Below are positions 7,205 through 57,088 of a stretch of 64,000 bases of DNA, in pieces; the stretch's first letter is position 1, and each line of letters opens with the position of its first letter. Below the pieces are notes generated by a model. That model did not search any database. It saw only the letters and a list, made by a program, of their open reading frames with translations, and was not told where the DNA came from. The position numbers were made by a program, and so were the translations under genes. The stretch is from a virus. The stretch spans positions 1-64,000 of IMG/VR virus record IMGVR_UViG_3300026130_000003. One strand, written 5' to 3'.

Positions 7205-7921
7205 TTATCGTTGAATTAAATCAAACAATATGTCCGCCCAATCTGAATGTGCTTCTTCATTAGGGAACATATTCAATGGATCTTCTTTATCCCCGTTGTA
7301 CTTATCATTCTCATAGATGTATCGGAACATAGTTGTGTTAGTAACTAGTTTTTTCCTATCAATCATGGAATACAAGTGTGTTAGTTTTGCTTGAATACAT
7401 AAATCACCTAAATCAGTGTCATCTAGTAGGTCATTAGTAAAGTTCTTTGCACTAAACATTATATATTTGATATCGTGTTTCTCGAAGAACGTTTGTAGTA
7501 AAATAACCTGGTTCATGAATACATGGAAGTCGTATACTGGTGCGTACAAGTCTGTCATGTAAATTTTGTTTAGTATATCTAGGCGTTCGTTTGACTCGTC
7601 ACTGAATTCAGGATTTGGAATATATTCGCCTCGAGGTATACCGTGAACCAAATGTGCGGTTTCTGCATGGAAAAATTCTCTTCGTGCAAGGTCTGTAAAA
7701 CCTATAACAACCATTTCAGGTTTTTCTCCGCGATTAATAAATTCGCATAATGTAGAAATAGTTGAGCGCACAATGTATTGGTTACTTACATTGTAGTCTG
7801 CTTCAATAAAGATTTTGTTATCTTCTACATTTATTTTCTTTCCTAGAATGTAAGGCCATGATTTGGTTTTATCTTCTAGCGTGTGCCCTTCGGTGTAACC
7901 ACATCCGTTAACATATATCAT
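7205..7921 (-). CDS. SGNH/GDSL-hydrolase-fold protein, catalytic motifs altered
   Basis: VNGCGYTEG (cf. GxSxT), SN..I.R, C-terminal FPNEEAH (cf. HPxxxxH); related to 51672..52541. Confidence 0.55.
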   Translation of the reverse strand: MIYVNGCGYTEGHTLEDKTKSWPYILGKKINVEDNKIFIEADYNVSNQYIVRSTISTLCEFINRGEKPEMVVIGFTDLARREFFHAETAHLVHGIPRGEYIPNPEFSDESNERLDILNKIYMTDLYAPVYDFHVFMNQVILLQTFFEKHDIKYIMFSAKNFTNDLLDDTDLGDLCIQAKLTHLYSMIDRKKLVTNTTMFRYIYENDKYNGDKEDPLNMFPNEEAHSDWADILFDLIQR

Positions 7922-7954
7922 TAATGATCTCCTTTAAGTATTAACTGTGTAGTT

Positions 7955-7962
7955 TATTTATC
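7955..7962 (-). promoter_or_regulatory. T4-type late promoter GATAAATA driving the 7921->1 operon
   Basis: Variant of TATAAATA repeated upstream of most structural operons in this window. Confidence 0.65.
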
Positions 7963-7966
7963 AATT

Positions 7967-7992
7967 AAAAACCCGCCATAGTAGCGGGTTTG
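7967..7992 (-). terminator. Rho-independent terminator after FG-GAP gene 1
   Basis: Minus strand AAACCCGC-TACTATG-GCGGGTTTTT. Confidence 0.85.
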
Positions 7993-8010
7993 TTTAAGAG
8001 TAGTGGTTAC

Positions 8011-9306
8011 TTAACTCAATTCGAATATGTATGCTTTACCTGATCCCGAACCGCTCGCATCATCTTCGTACTGCGCACCTACAATTGCGTAGTTACCACT
8101 AATCGACACTGACCTACCGAACTGATCATTAAGACCTGCAATCGGAATGTATGCGTTTGGATTGTCTAATGTAGCAACTAAGTTACCCGTAGTCACATCA
8201 AAGATATATGCTTTGCCCGAATTAGCACCGGTTGCGTCATCTTCTGCGTATGCTCCGACAATAGCATAGTTACCACTAATCGCCACTGCGTAACCGAATT
8301 CATCACTAGCACTTGTACCGAATGCAGTTGGATTATCTAGTGTATGTAGTAAGTTGCCAGTTGTAACATCAAAGATATATGCCTTGCCTGAACCCGAACC
8401 GCCAGCATCGTCTTCTGCATATGCGCCTACAATTGCATAGTTACCAGAAATACTTACTGATCCGCCGAATCCATCAGCAAAACTTGTACTGAATGCATTT
8501 GGATTGTCTAATTGGTGTACTAAATTACCAGTTGTTACATCAAATATGTATGCTTTGCCTGAACTAATGCCGCTTGAATCATCCTCTAAACTGGCACCAA
8601 CGATAGCATAGTTGCCAGATATAGATACTGCTTCACCAAAAGTATCATTTAAACTTGTACTGAATACATTTGGATTATCTAGTGTGTGTACTAAATTACC
8701 AGTTGTAACATCAAAGATGTAGGCTTTACCCGAAGCAGCACCGCCTGCGTCATCTTCTAAACGCGCTCCAACAATGGCGTAATTACCACTAATTGCCACT
8801 GATTCTCCGAAATTATCACCAGCACTTGTACTGAATGCAGTTGGATTATCTAGTGTATGTACTAAGTTACCAGTAGTTACATCGTAGATGTATGCTTTGC
8901 CCGAGTCAACACCGCCAGCATCATCTTCATAATATGCTCCAACAATGGCGTAGTTACCATCCACTGCCAATGTATAACTGAACTGATCATTAGCACTTGT
9001 GCCATATGCGTTTGGATTGTCTAGTGTATGCAGTAGATTACCAGTTGCCACATCAAAGACGTATGCTTTACCTGATTGGGCACCACCAGCATCGTCTTCG
9101 TAAGGTGCGCCGACAACGGCGTAATTACCAGAAATACTTACTGACCAACCGAACACATCACCAGCACTTGTACTGAATCCAATCGGATCGTCTAGTGTTT
9201 TACTTAATGTTGCTGTTGTGTATACCGGAGCAGGTGGTGTTGGTAGTTCACCTGCCATGTATGCGACTTGTCTTGTCACATGTACGTTATTAAATTTAAT
9301 GGCCAT
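8011..9306 (-). CDS. FG-GAP repeat 7-bladed beta-propeller (putative virion adhesin), copy 1
   Basis: Seven 57-aa (171-nt) repeats [17 protein letters not shown]....[20 protein letters not shown]. Confidence 0.9.
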   Translation of the reverse strand: MAIKFNNVHVTRQVAYMAGELPTPPAPVYTTATLSKTLDDPIGFSTSAGDVFGWSVSISGNYAVVGAPYEDDAGGAQSGKAYVFDVATGNLLHTLDNPNAYGTSANDQFSYTLAVDGNYAIVGAYYEDDAGGVDSGKAYIYDVTTGNLVHTLDNPTAFSTSAGDNFGESVAISGNYAIVGARLEDDAGGAASGKAYIFDVTTGNLVHTLDNPNVFSTSLNDTFGEAVSISGNYAIVGASLEDDSSGISSGKAYIFDVTTGNLVHQLDNPNAFSTSFADGFGGSVSISGNYAIVGAYAEDDAGGSGSGKAYIFDVTTGNLLHTLDNPTAFGTSASDEFGYAVAISGNYAIVGAYAEDDATGANSGKAYIFDVTTGNLVATLDNPNAYIPIAGLNDQFGRSVSISGNYAIVGAQYEDDASGSGSGKAYIFELS

Positions 9307-53668: not shown

Positions 53669-54796
53669 ATGGAAGTTATTAAAAAATACATACCGCTATA
53701 CAAACTAGACACCAAAGGCAAAACTCGTGTGTGGTATATGGAGTTAGGGCAAAACGGTGAAGAATATGGTTATCGTACCGTGGCAGGTATCAAAGACGGT
53801 AAAATGGTTACTTCTGAGTGGAGATTGTCTTCAGGTAAGAATCTAGGCCGCAGTAATGAAACTACACCCAGAGAGCAAGCAGAAAGCGAAATCAAATCCA
53901 ATTATACGTCAAAACAAGATTCCGGTTACTTTGGTGATCAAACAATGATCAAAAACTTTGACAAGTTTATGCCAATGTTAGCGAATGATTACTCTAAACT
54001 AAAAAAGGGTCTAGAGTTCCCAGTAATTTCACAACCCAAACTAGATGGTATTCGCTGTCTTTCTCGTGCTAATGGTCTTTGGACTCGTGCTGGCAAAGAA
54101 ATTACTAGTTGTCCGCATCTTGAAGAATCATTGAAAGAAGTTTTTGATGCAATGCCAGGAATTATCATTGACGGTGAACTATACAATCACGAACTAAAAG
54201 ATGACTTCAATAGTATCACTTCTATGGTTCGCAAAACTAAACTAACAGAAGCAGATATTACCAAGTCAAAAGAACTTGTACAGTACCATGTTTATGACTT
54301 GTTTGATACTAACAATCCCAACATGCCATTTACTGACCGTCAACAACTGTTGAGCGAAATCGTAAAAGATATAGAAGGTGTTGTAGTTGTAGAGACAACA
54401 AAAGTATTTTCCCAAGAAAAACTAGATGAACTATATGGTACTTACCTGACTGACGGTTTTGAAGGGCAAATGGTTCGCATTGATAGTGCATACGAAAACA
54501 AGCGTAGTAAATTCCTACTCAAACGCAAAGAGTTTATCACAGATGAATTTACTGTAGTATCAGTAGAAGAAGGTCAAGGTAATTGGAGTGGACACATCAA
54601 ACGCTTTGTTCTAAATCTACCTGATGGAACACAATTCGGCGCTGGTGTTCGTGGTAACCAAGCAACGCTTAGAGAGTTGTTTGAATCAAATAATAAGCCA
54701 ACATGGGCGACACTACGATACTTCACACCTACACCTGATGGTATTCCACGATTCCCAGTAGTAGTTGATTGGGGAGTCGGAGAACGAAACGACTAA
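53669..54796 (+). CDS. lig: ATP-dependent DNA ligase
   Basis: PMLA, QPKLDGIR (KxDG), IDGELY, YHVYD, EGQM, YENKRS..LLK.K, PRFP. Confidence 0.95.
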   Translation: MEVIKKYIPLYKLDTKGKTRVWYMELGQNGEEYGYRTVAGIKDGKMVTSEWRLSSGKNLGRSNETTPREQAESEIKSNYTSKQDSGYFGDQTMIKNFDKFMPMLANDYSKLKKGLEFPVISQPKLDGIRCLSRANGLWTRAGKEITSCPHLEESLKEVFDAMPGIIIDGELYNHELKDDFNSITSMVRKTKLTEADITKSKELVQYHVYDLFDTNNPNMPFTDRQQLLSEIVKDIEGVVVVETTKVFSQEKLDELYGTYLTDGFEGQMVRIDSAYENKRSKFLLKRKEFITDEFTVVSVEEGQGNWSGHIKRFVLNLPDGTQFGAGVRGNQATLRELFESNNKPTWATLRYFTPTPDGIPRFPVVVDWGVGERND

Positions 54797-55311
54797 ACCC
54801 CATTAATAGAAGCAGACTCCACTGAATCTCGGTGGAGTTCCCAAAACATATCTGCCCCACAGAATATCCAATCACCATGATTCTTACTGGTGTACACGAT
54901 AGAATGTGGGGTTTTCCACCCTAGACTTGCTTGATACGCAACATACTTCCCTTTACGATTGAACTTCATAAACATAATGTTTAGGTCTTTGTCTTCGGCT
55001 ACTTCCATACATTGGTCTATCCATTTTTCTAGTATGGGAATATAACCCGGCGATAGTAACGAGTGAAATTGAAAATCGGCGTAGAATTTACATTCAGAGT
55101 TAAAGTACTTCCAGTTATCAGGCGGAATCAAATCCCCTTTAAATGAACGAATTTGTCCCTCGCTTAGTATCTCAGTTCTCTTTTGATTTTTACCTCCGAT
55201 GAATGCACCGGAGTTAGGGACACGAATAAACGAACCATTATATAGTTCACTTAAGAATTTTGCTTGTTCTCGTTCATAACCAGAACCTTTGTTTTTTGAT
55301 TTGTTAGACAT
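54793..55311 (-). CDS. Holliday junction resolvase-like PD-(D/E)XK nuclease
   Basis: SKNKG..YERE, R.P.SGA, GDL, SECK; start taken at ATG 55311. Confidence 0.75.
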   Translation of the reverse strand: MSNKSKNKGSGYEREQAKFLSELYNGSFIRVPNSGAFIGGKNQKRTEILSEGQIRSFKGDLIPPDNWKYFNSECKFYADFQFHSLLSPGYIPILEKWIDQCMEVAEDKDLNIMFMKFNRKGKYVAYQASLGWKTPHSIVYTSKNHGDWIFCGADMFWELHRDSVESASINGV

Positions 55312-55439
55312 TATCACCATCCTATAGAGGTCTTTAACAAGACCTAAGCCCTCATAAAAACTCAAACTTCGTAAACTCAGTTTTCGTTTTTAATCGGTCT
55401 TTTCTCTGCCGAGGGCTATTAAGAGAATTATTGTGCTCT

Positions 55440-55447
55440 TATTTATA
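55440..55447 (-). promoter_or_regulatory. Late promoter TATAAATA ahead of a structured leader of the resolvase gene
   Basis: Exact T4 late consensus; leader has AGCCCTC/GAGGGCT and GGTCTT/AAGACC stems. Confidence 0.6.
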
Positions 55448-55449
55448 TC

Positions 55450-56020
55450 ATTACCAGGAGGAGCCACAATTGCCCCGTTGCCGGGGCAAATGGTTAACTC
55501 GGATATTACCGAGGTGTCACCTCTGTTTATGGGTTAGTCTCCAGATAGACGAGGTAGGTTGGCGATCCCCTCTTAACCCAGTACTTGCGACTTTCGTCCC
55601 AACGGCACCTTAAACATATCTAAACAGACCAATATGAATAAAGCCGGCAGTGATTTTGTATTTCCTGCCATCAGTGTGTGCGTTCTCTGGTTTTTCACAG
55701 TTCATCGGCACGGTTACTCTGGTATACATGCGGTTACATGTATTTTCCGCAAGAATAGGTAAGTATCCTTGCTCATTACAGACTATTTTGCAGATTTACG
55801 AGAAGCGTGGAAGCGCCTAACCTTCCTATTCTGACGGCAACACCATTACGATGGCAGTCTCAATCCCGGATACAATGTATCATCCAGTTCTGCTTGTAAG
55901 TATAGTTCACTACATTTTAGATAGTTTTAGTTTTAAGACGCTATAAGACCTTGGTGGTCGGATTCTGAAGTCGGTTTTTATATAATAATATTCTGGATGT
56001 TTCCGTCGTTACTGACGGGT
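55450..56020 (-). ncRNA. Candidate large structured RNA with group II domain V/VI-like module
   Basis: No credible ORF, GC-richer than flanks, many stems with minus-strand GNRA loops; boundaries approximate. Confidence 0.7.
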
Positions 56021-56021
56021 A

Positions 56022-56261
56022 CTATATAATAGGCGTACCAGCCTTCTTGCTCATTTCAAAATTGTTCTCTATTATAGAGTTCAAGTGTTTGATATGAGTT
56101 ACAGGCATTTCGTGGATTTCAGAAATAGAAACCCCTCCACGCATGTACCAAGTTAATTGTAACAGGTTATAGTGTAACTTGTCAACCTGTTTTTCGTATT
56201 TTTCAATACGCTCCTGTATATCTTCCGTGCTGGCTGTTACGAGCCAGCGATGGAAAAATTT
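56022..56261 (-). CDS. gp51-like frame, probably expressed by -1 frameshift from the upstream ORF
   Basis: Not in ORF track; reads FFHRWLVTASTEDIQERIEKYEKQVDKLHYNLLQLTWYMRGGVSISEIHEMP...GTPII*; slippery A AAT TTT at 56261-55. Confidence 0.65.
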   Translation of the reverse strand, partial: KFFHRWLVTASTEDIQERIEKYEKQVDKLHYNLLQLTWYMRGGVSISEIHEMPVTHIKHLNSIIENNFEMSKKAGTPII

Positions 56262-57088
56262 ATAGGATTTACCTCAATATTCACTTCGTCTACATTCCCG
56301 CATTCTGGGCATGTGAACTTTAACAAGTTTGAATCATCAGGCTTCTTAGATAATTGTACAGCAATTTGGTTGATCTTGTCAACTACTTTTCCGGGAATAT
56401 TGAACATAAATTCGTCAATAAATGCCTTGTCAGTCACTATTTCACCATCTTCGGTTTCTATTTTGTAGATTGCTTCTGTTAGAAGACTAACATTGTGTTG
56501 TACAATCTTATTGAAACTTTGGTAAAATCGTTTTGCAAGTTCCATGTCACCATCTGGATCTTCGTCCGATACACTGCTTTCAATTTCTAGTAAAATCTTT
56601 TTACGCTCTATATCCATAAGACTCAAACGAGTTACACTTTCAACTGTTGCAGGTGAGATATAAATTTTTATACCCTCATGTTCAACAACAGGTATCTCTT
56701 TAATATCCGGAAACCTATTCATAAGTTGATTCAAATCAACTTTGTAATCTGTCACTGCGTCACATTCTGTACATTGATGCGTGTGCTCTATGTCCTTTCC
56801 GGAACTGGCATACTGTATTGCTAGGAACAATGACTCCGCATCTATGTTACATAGTTTTCTTGGATTTGGAATCGAAGGCACACAACTTTTGATGACATTG
56901 ATGAGAGCCTCACCGTTTAACAAAGCATCTGGATTCTGTAATGATATTTCATCTAGCGCAGTCATTGGTAAAATTGGCACTTCATCCAATATGGTCTTAT
57001 CAATCTCTGGATTGAATAAACCATTGGTTGGCAATGTAACGTACATTGCAGGTTTTCTGAAATACTTACTCAGTGGGTTGTTTGACAT
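56237..57088 (-). CDS. Baseplate hub / tail assembly chaperone (gp26-like)
   Basis: NPL..YFR.P..Y..LP..G, PMTA.DE...PDALLNG, two CxxC pairs (CTEC, CPECG). Confidence 0.75.
   Translation of the reverse strand: MSNNPLSKYFRKPAMYVTLPTNGLFNPEIDKTILDEVPILPMTALDEISLQNPDALLNGEALINVIKSCVPSIPNPRKLCNIDAESLFLAIQYASSGKDIEHTHQCTECDAVTDYKVDLNQLMNRFPDIKEIPVVEHEGIKIYISPATVESVTRLSLMDIERKKILLEIESSVSDEDPDGDMELAKRFYQSFNKIVQHNVSLLTEAIYKIETEDGEIVTDKAFIDEFMFNIPGKVVDKINQIAVQLSKKPDDSNLLKFTCPECGNVDEVNIEVNPINFSIAGS

Follow-up and report, generated by a model that had tools for sequence, protein, structure and literature searches.

Locus and flanking genes

The window analyzed here, 64,000 nt of IMG/VR record IMGVR_UViG_3300026130_000003, is part of a 72-kb viral contig with an estimated completeness of 20% (CheckV). 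When ORFs of at least 100 aa are counted, the widest gap in the window is 871 nt long (55366-56236). It lies between two genes:

56237-57088, minus strand: gp26-like baseplate-hub gene (PF12322), the upstream neighbour
54793-55311, minus strand: PD-(D/E)XK endonuclease gene (PF24608), the downstream neighbour

The nuclease gene probably starts at ATG 55311, rather than at TTG 55365. GC content reaches 0.44-0.475 over 55400-55899, compared with approximately 0.35-0.39 in the flanks. The preliminary description of this DNA had singled out the region as the largest gap and as richer in GC than its surroundings, and both observations are borne out, though the first ~215 nt of the gap (56022-56236) are predicted to be coding. 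Thus, the truly non-coding stretch is approximately 55312-56021, which is ORF-less and above the flanks in GC.

The arrangement recurs in other viruses. We identified gp26 relatives (49-100% identity) on 11 viral contigs, and in all gp26-bearing contigs with enough downstream sequence an ORF-free gap of ~870-920 nt is followed by a nuclease gene of 176-190 aa. Across the larger set of loci described below, gp26 lies upstream of the RNA in 132 of the 133 that have 1.5 kb of upstream sequence.

A predicted frameshift extension of gp26

Programmed -1 frameshifting in tail-assembly genes of the G/GT type involves an in-frame X_XXY_YYZ heptamer, a spacer of 5-9 nt, a downstream stem-loop and a conserved open -1 frame. 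All of these are found at the end of gp26:

56022-56261, minus strand: predicted programmed -1 frameshift module of gp26, outside the RNA

The slippery sequence A_AAU_UUU (56255-56261) is in frame and is followed, after a 6-nt spacer, by the stem GCUGGCU/AGCCAGC (7 bp; stem-loop 56229-56248), which spans the gp26 stop codon. The -1 frame extension is exactly 79 codons, a length that is constant in the relatives, and ends at TAG 56022-56024. A strict regular expression recovered the arrangement in 75 of 79 loci, and the four misses comprise three variant stems and one wrong anchor. In the alignment of relatives, the first ~215 nt past the gp26 stop vary in a codon-like pattern (column entropy by codon position 1.15/0.64/0.38). 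We therefore predict that 56022-56236 encodes a programmed-frameshift extension of gp26, and the gp26 gene model is corrected by adding this conserved -1 frameshift. In cultured relatives, a separate small ORF is annotated where the extension lies. An invariant AUG (ATG 56144), a few bases past a predicted promoter start, opens the last 40 codons of the extension, and a free 40-aa peptide may also be made from it.

A conserved structured RNA on the minus strand

Folding of the 871-nt gap gave minimum free energy z-scores of -3.58 (minus strand) and -2.51 (plus strand), which, with only 20 shuffles each, are weak on their own. Alignment of the relatives is more informative: beyond the gp26 extension, blocks of RNA sequence outdo the flanking genes in conservation and compensatory changes are visible. 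We quantified pairing in three alignments, with shuffled alignments and alignments in which the pairing was slid as controls:

A2, 3' core: 35 sequences and 36 pairs; 96.0% of cells paired; 21 pairs changed on both sides (slid: 31-44% paired, 2-7 pairs; 0 of 500 shuffles reach the real value)
A3, 5' domain: 34 sequences and 29 pairs; 96.5% of cells paired; 12 pairs changed on both sides (slid: 33-48% paired; 5 of 500 shuffles reach the pair count)
A5, everything 3' of P2: 45 sequences, 75 pairs and 14 helices; 93.5% of cells paired; 42 pairs changed on both sides (slid: 33-42% paired, 6-15 pairs; 0 of 500 shuffles)

Shuffle controls overstate significance because the sequences are related, so the slid controls provide the fairer comparison. 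Covariation among homologues had been proposed as the check on the preliminary description, and it is evident here (93.5-96.5% of cells paired versus 31-48% when slid). G-U cells greatly outnumber A-C cells (183 versus 26 in A5 and 131 versus 1 in A3); therefore, the RNA strand is the minus strand of the window. Column entropy of the core is nearly the same at the three codon positions (0.60/0.62/0.59), without the three-base periodicity of the neighbouring ORF (1.15/0.64/0.38).

These results combine the general hallmarks of a structured non-coding RNA, namely compensatory pairs, strand-specific G-U pairs and the lack of a coding signal, and support the earlier proposal of a large RNA with GNRA-capped stems on this strand. 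We are highly confident that the locus holds a real, new structured RNA gene read from the minus strand. That the region is instead a decayed ORF or an element acting only as DNA seems extremely improbable. Stop-free stretches of 43-114 codons do occur in the core, as a decayed ORF might leave behind, but the sequence comparisons contradict this explanation, given the lack of codon periodicity, the compensatory changes in 42 of 75 pairs, the excess of G-U over A-C and the indels that are not multiples of three.

Distribution and novelty of the RNA family

We located the RNA on 89 contigs of viral origin and on at least 118 from metagenomes. A search with a 19-base pattern taken from a conserved block yielded 76 viral contigs with 43 distinct cores, and a second pattern, from the 5' domain, recovered 14 further viral loci, of which a covariance model (R1) confirms 13; the fourteenth (L106) is a GC-rich chance match. 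A degenerate pattern retrieved the metagenome stretches (at least 118). In total there are 65 distinct 120-nt cores over 168 loci, although viral and metagenome loci overlap in origin and the locus counts are not independent. Exactly one R1 match occurs in each of five whole contigs searched, two of which are at least 92% complete. The carriers are a clade of uncultured aquatic jumbo myoviruses of ~340 kb related to the Rak2-like phages, and the nearest cultured phages by gp26 are Rak2-like jumbo myoviruses (~30% identity).

Searches beyond this clade did not reveal the RNA. R1 found nothing better than E ~0.8 in the gp26 loci and whole genomes of Phosso, Atu_ph07, RaK2, XaC1 and PA5oct, and the gap has no blastn match among 50,697 phage records. 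The 19-base pattern matched four times in bacterial and archaeal genomes, approximately the number expected by chance by our own estimate, and R1 confirmed none of the four. No Rfam 15 family matched the whole window at the gathering score (cmscan); region 55200-56400, searched up to E = 10, gave only four unrelated weak matches, and eight family members, searched up to E = 5, gave three unrelated matches, none on the RNA and none recurring. ARAGORN predicted no tRNA or tmRNA genes in the 64-kb window. Our literature searches turned up no description of this RNA, the RNAs closest to it in kind being ROOL, GOLLD and the ncRNAs of PA5oct, and the available text of the moraphage paper (PMC12619734) contains no mention of non-coding RNA. 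The Rfam check that had been suggested for the region thus leaves the idea of a possibly new class standing, since no catalogued family matches; as judged from sequence, the RNA family is previously uncatalogued.

Other sizeable RNA-like elements were encountered in cultured jumbo phages. The Rak2-like phages carry a different unannotated, hairpin-rich element of ~430 nt at two to five places per record (62 records, 199 places). The five copies in XaC1 each lie behind a TTGACG-type site and differ by compensatory changes (structure by eye, five copies), and one of them (L092, 5230-5650) occupies the equivalent gap upstream of a resolvase gene. R1 detects no similarity between this multi-copy element and the single-copy RNA of the window. 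The Sinorhizobium phage Phosso has a 1014-nt unannotated hairpin-rich gap (L089, 5233-6246) that extends from an RNase HI gene to a Holliday-junction resolvase gene, and for which blastn against phage records, R1 and Rfam gave no match. We considered the Phosso and XaC1 gaps as homologues of the window RNA and rejected them: a few motifs look similar by eye, but R1 gives no match. Sizeable unannotated RNA-like elements thus occur in the Rak2 lineage of jumbo myoviruses, in uncultured as well as cultured members.

Architecture of the RNA core

From 5' to 3', the core consists of three domains (5', middle and a pseudoknotted 3' core), after which come H9, H10 and a tail. The R1 match, at 55517-55647, reaches 111.7 bits. 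The parts are as follows:

55449-55893, minus strand: conserved RNA core (445 nt in the window, 402-451 nt in relatives)
55786-55893, minus strand: 5' domain, with P1, H1, P2, H2 and H3
55869-55881, minus strand: H1, in the 5' domain, covaries
55859-55868 with 55799-55805, minus strand: P2, a predicted and invariant helix of CGGGA with UCUCG
55833-55859, minus strand: H2, covaries
55809-55826, minus strand: H3, covaries
55646-55742, minus strand: middle domain, with H4, the junction CCAG, Hv and H5
55725-55742, minus strand: H4 (TACATG/CATGTA), 7 of 9 pairs with double changes
55717-55724, minus strand: junction CCAG, pairing with the P_e loop CUGG as pseudoknot PK1
55678-55711, minus strand: Hv, a variable hairpin of the middle domain
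55646-55669, minus strand: H5 (GGCAG/CTGCC), 98.7% paired
55522-55643, minus strand: pseudoknotted 3' core, with H6, GUGCC, P_a, P_b, P_c, P_d, P_e and the 3' strands of P_c and P_f
55589-55598, minus strand: P_b (GAC-GAAA-GUC), in the 3' core
55537-55550, minus strand: P_e, in the 3' core, whose loop CUGG joins PK1
55449-55513, minus strand: H9, H10 and 3' tail, the 3' end of the core
55498-55513, minus strand: H9 (CTCGG/CCGAG), outer part weak (65-72% paired)
55469-55491, minus strand: H10 (TTGCCCCG-GCAA-CGGGGCAA), with a GCAA loop, 95.3% paired

In the 5' domain, P1 is GCAG/CUGC in the window and GUGG/CCAC in relatives, so that support for its pairing comes only from the variant of the window itself. 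P2 would close a three-way junction with H2 and H3. In the 3' core, H6 encloses the 5' strand of P_f, P_a is GUUGG/CCAAC and P_c is GGGTTA/TAACCC. Three crossings, i.e., pseudoknots, result: H6 with P_f, P_a with P_c/P_d, and the junction-loop contact PK1. The last of these is paired in 45 of 45 sequences (U-A in 32 and C-G in 13) and takes the forms CUAG/CUAG, in which the strands are self-complementary, CCAG/CUGG and, in one metagenome contig (L134), the reciprocal CUGG/CCAG. The unpaired GUGCC, GCAAU, GAAUCG and CGA, together with junction nucleotides, are invariant over the 65 distinct cores, and the P_b loop in the same set is GAAA (54), GCAA (7), GUAA (3) or UAAA (1).

All the stems listed in the preliminary description are present on the minus strand. 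Most of its hairpins, including H10, GAC-GAAA-GTC, TACATG/CATGTA, CTCGG/CCGAG and GGCAG/CTGCC, are elements of this fold, and the suggested long-range pair GGGTTA/TAACCC corresponds to P_c. The hairpin CCGTCA-GTAA-CGACGG (56003-56018) exists in the window, but relatives do not conserve it. Likewise, the pair AGAATAGG/CCTATTCT can be found, but its 3' arm sits in an insertion restricted to the window lineage. The suggested TACCAG/CTGGTA pair does not bring together conserved partners; CCAG pairs instead with the CUGG loop of P_e.

H10 is flanked by a direct repeat of 7-9 nt. A word from the H9 region recurs in the 3' tail (55449-55457). It reads GGUAAU in the window and, among others, GGGACAGA, GAACAAGU and GGCAAGU in relatives, and from lineage to lineage the two copies vary in concert. 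A repeat of at least 7 nt common to the H9 region and the tail is present in 38 of 45 sequences, versus 51 of 900 shuffled tails. No complementary partner for the repeat was found inside the RNA unit. An antisense target for it in the phage genomes was likewise rejected: wherever G001, G002 and G000 hold its complement in a homologous context, this is the opposite strand of the RNA locus. Kissing between the loops of H4 and of a hairpin downstream of the core (hairpin B, below) was considered and dropped; the loops are complementary in most lineages, but by reading of the sequences their covariation is inconsistent. An extra insertion follows P1 in the window lineage but not in other lineages, and its CCUAUUCU can pair with AGAAUAGG of the H2/H3 junction (55752-55759 and 55825-55832, minus strand).

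The RNA gene unit

The core is accompanied by a leader, predicted promoters and two hairpins at the 3' side:

56156-56185, minus strand: sigma70-like promoter TTGACA-18-TACAAT (11 of 12 consensus matches, TG before the -10), inside the gp26-extension ORF
55894-56021, minus strand: 5' leader, with three CUAAAA motifs at 55913-55932 and the window-only hairpin at 56003-56018
55356-55391, minus strand: 3' hairpin A, with the conserved apex UGAG-U..-ACGAA
55328-55345, minus strand: 3' hairpin B, AGGUCUU-GUUA-AAGACCU, shortly before the start codon of the nuclease gene

Leaders of the relatives contain two to six CUAAU(A/G) motifs in 41 of 42 cases, and none of the 42 cores has the motif; the window leader has CUAAAA in its place. 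The motifs are located at ~11-nt multiples: of 105 spacings between adjacent motifs, 70 deviate from a multiple of 10.5 by no more than 1.6 nt. Clusters of at least four CTAAT(A/G) motifs were looked for in two 342-kb genomes, and the leader of this RNA is the only one. We rejected CTAATA as a general promoter motif, as an ORF start follows 10-22% of its sites versus 32-61% for TATAAATA, and found no enrichment of CTAATA in the window.

Between the stop of the gp26 extension and the RNA, a near-consensus TTGACA-17-TAGTAT site is present in 26 of 42 relatives, although promoter-like matches are no rarer in shuffled AT-rich sequence and all promoters discussed here are consensus matches only. 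The hexamers at 56156-56185 persist in relatives despite differing codons. At the other end, the sequence between the core and hairpin A is almost entirely A and T. Hairpin A has at least five pairs around its apex in 63 of 65 distinct relatives; by pair count in a MAFFT alignment it is 64-73% paired, with a +1 slide about equal. Hairpin B is 98.1% paired in 65 sequences, mostly invariant and unique in the window, with compensatory variants in L128, L031 and L134.

The metagenome contig L134 carries a complete RNA unit (7367-8200) between the gene for an 1800-aa protein and small ORFs, far from gp26 and without an adjoining nuclease gene. Six copies of the CUAAUA motif follow a terminator and a promoter; then come the core, which scores 126.5 bits, both 3' hairpins (A and B) and the next promoter. 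This neighbourhood, together with the exchange of nuclease neighbours described below, indicates that the RNA is an autonomous module. It looks like an autonomous gene with predicted sigma70-like promoters, a repeat leader and two 3' hairpins. Late co-transcription with the tail chaperone gene (gp26), as had been assumed, is not favored by these data: the window and 26 of 42 relatives have a promoter-like site of their own for the RNA, and the L134 unit is distant from gp26.

The downstream nuclease slot

Homing genes of the SegE type are typically found inserted next to conserved loci that are well expressed. Downstream sequence is available at 136 loci, and the next gene is a SegE-like GIY-YIG nuclease (PF19835; for example, L016 8571-9008) in 89, a PD-(D/E)XK nuclease in 46 and neither in one. 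The two types never occur together in one slot (0 of 136), and in L031 two other genes intervene after the RNA. Since either type of nuclease follows it, the RNA is not tied to one nuclease, and the suggestion that it acts with the adjacent nuclease is not supported. We infer that the nuclease genes are interchangeable neighbours, as for free-standing homing genes beside a conserved locus.

Possible functions

Large, intricately folded RNAs of bacteria and phages are rare, and those that have been solved are ribozymes, guide RNAs and unexpected RNA-only assemblies. We anticipate that host-type sigma70 promoters would allow early transcription of the RNA, independent of gp26. The folded core could then play an architectural role in trans, whether it binds a protein partner or assembles from RNA alone. 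The single-stranded leader repeats would provide a multivalent binding platform, and the PK1 junction-loop contact would hold the fold together or bridge copies. This trans-acting architectural reading is favored because the pseudoknotted core is compact with invariant junctions, the promoters are of host type, the leader carries single-stranded repeats, and ROOL offers a precedent. We advance the mechanism itself tentatively, as a model held with less than even confidence, and would give roughly even chances to the explanation as a whole, i.e., an autonomous new RNA gene with a trans-acting architectural role. It is possible, though doubtful, that the RNA represents a new self-assembling or catalytic class of jumbo phages, in which PK1 would bridge copies as in ROOL and the identical, lineage-specific 7-9-nt repeats flanking H10 would be paired recognition sites for a partner that co-evolves within each phage lineage.

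The main rival to the architectural reading, albeit an unlikely one, is a pre-primer RNA linked to a replication origin. ColE1 RNA II and the R-loop origins oriF and oriG of T4 are precedents for such RNAs. Primer RNAs of the ColE1 type are processed by RNase H, and replication begins at their 3' end. Here, transcription from a host-type promoter would pass through an array resembling iterons and reach an AT-rich tract that unwinds; there the long folded transcript would stay hybridized to the DNA and prime replication, with the fold controlling formation of the hybrid. The sole CTAAT(A/G) cluster in the two 342-kb genomes and the A/T tract before hairpin A would be suited to this role, and the spacing of the motifs near 10.5-bp multiples fits a DNA-level origin at least as well, but an 11-nt tandem unit yields 11-nt multiples without any DNA-binding protein. 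Cumulative GC skew has a minimum ~6 kb from the RNA locus, local in G001 (~180 kb) and global in G002 (~291 kb), and the local minimum of the window (~57000, at the gp26/tape-measure divergence) is ~1 kb away. However, gene orientation switches at the same place, and such a switch generates skew by itself; G001 and G002 are syntenic and so count as one observation. Genes for replication and recombination are found in the neighbourhood (ligase, nuclease, gp46-like) and an RNase HI gene abuts the analogous unannotated gap in Phosso. In the window, we identified neither an initiator protein nor an RNase H gene adjoining the locus. The fold, with its three pseudoknots, GNRA loops and invariant junction nucleotides, is also far more elaborate than known primer RNAs require.

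A compact and multiply pseudoknotted core with junction nucleotides invariant over 65 distinct cores would suit a new ribozyme, in which GUGCC, GCAAU, GAAUCG and CGA could make up a catalytic site that processes the RNA itself or carries out some other reaction. In its strand order, P_a-P_b-P_c-P_a'-P_e-P_c', the core is reminiscent of the P3-P7-P8 pseudoknot of group I introns. On the other hand, no Rfam ribozyme model matches, the string CUGAUGA is present in some lineages only, and there is neither exon context nor an inferable cleavage site, so that we consider a ribozyme quite unlikely. A cis-acting leader that sets the translation or stability of the downstream nuclease mRNA, for which the structured region upstream of T4 gene 49 is a precedent, appears very unlikely. 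A nuclease gene follows on the same strand in 135 of 136 loci, hairpin B directly precedes its start codon and no canonical terminator separates it from the RNA, but the same RNA is followed by two unrelated nucleases, by two intervening genes in L031, and in L134 by no adjoining nuclease gene although the core and both hairpins are kept. Moreover, ~700 nt with three pseudoknots would be out of proportion for a gene of 146-180 aa. With more than 100 natural variants, a well-supported fold with three pseudoknots, a defined gene unit and no Rfam match, the RNA is ready for structure determination and for self-cleavage, oligomerization and pull-down assays.

Comparison with known RNAs

Several known RNAs share single traits with the RNA described here. 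HEARO/omega RNA is likewise a large structured RNA directly upstream of a nuclease gene, that of IscB. The RNA of the window differs in having no Rfam match and no visible guide-like end, and its neighbours are small PD-(D/E)XK or GIY-YIG nucleases that are interchangeable or absent (PF24608 or PF19835 SegE, not IscB/TnpB-type); we therefore rejected this assignment. ColE1 RNA II is a folded transcript of ~550 nt that runs from a sigma70 promoter into an AT-rich region, as proposed for the window RNA, but it is not known to have a pseudoknotted core, and an antisense partner and an origin are established for it. The packaging RNA of phi29 multimerizes via covarying loop-loop pairing and is encoded near structural genes, but at ~120-174 nt it is not known to have a pseudoknotted core and serves the packaging motor, and we saw no packaging link for the window RNA.

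Other known classes were considered and rejected. A group I intron would interrupt a gene with exons that join into one ORF; no such family matches here in Rfam, the upstream ORF ends at a conserved stop after 79 extension codons, and the unit is free-standing in L134. For tmRNA, which has tRNA-like ends and a reading frame for a tag, there is neither an ARAGORN prediction nor an Rfam match. Hammerhead and other small self-cleaving ribozymes also lack Rfam matches, and CUGAUGA is not shared by all lineages.

In PA5oct, a Pseudomonas jumbo phage related to Rak2, RNA-seq revealed four ORF-less transcripts of 236-619 nt (ncRNA001-004), two of which make up 2-5% of phage reads; the available text reports neither structure nor conservation for them (PMC7318152). 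R1 finds nothing in PA5oct, and its ncRNA004 lies at another locus than the RNA of the window.

The preliminary description had assigned the RNA to the kind represented by GOLLD and ROOL. Membership in these families is not supported: no covariance model matched at any threshold tried, the helix layout differs, and GOLLD and ROOL are often found near tRNA islands, according to the available literature text, whereas the 64-kb window has no tRNA or tmRNA genes. The window RNA is also distinguished by being single-copy beside gp26, by its repeat-bearing leader and by its confinement to one jumbo-phage clade. GOLLD and ROOL are also characterized by homo-oligomeric cages built of RNA alone. The likeness is of a more general nature: as far as the available text describes them, ROOL and GOLLD are similarly phage-encoded, several hundred nucleotides long, folded with multiple pseudoknots and without a known protein partner (PMC12286853). 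In ROOL, a loop-loop contact first seen by covariation proved to bridge separate copies (Kretsch et al. 2025, PMC12286853, available text). By analogy, PK1 could also bridge copies of the RNA described here.
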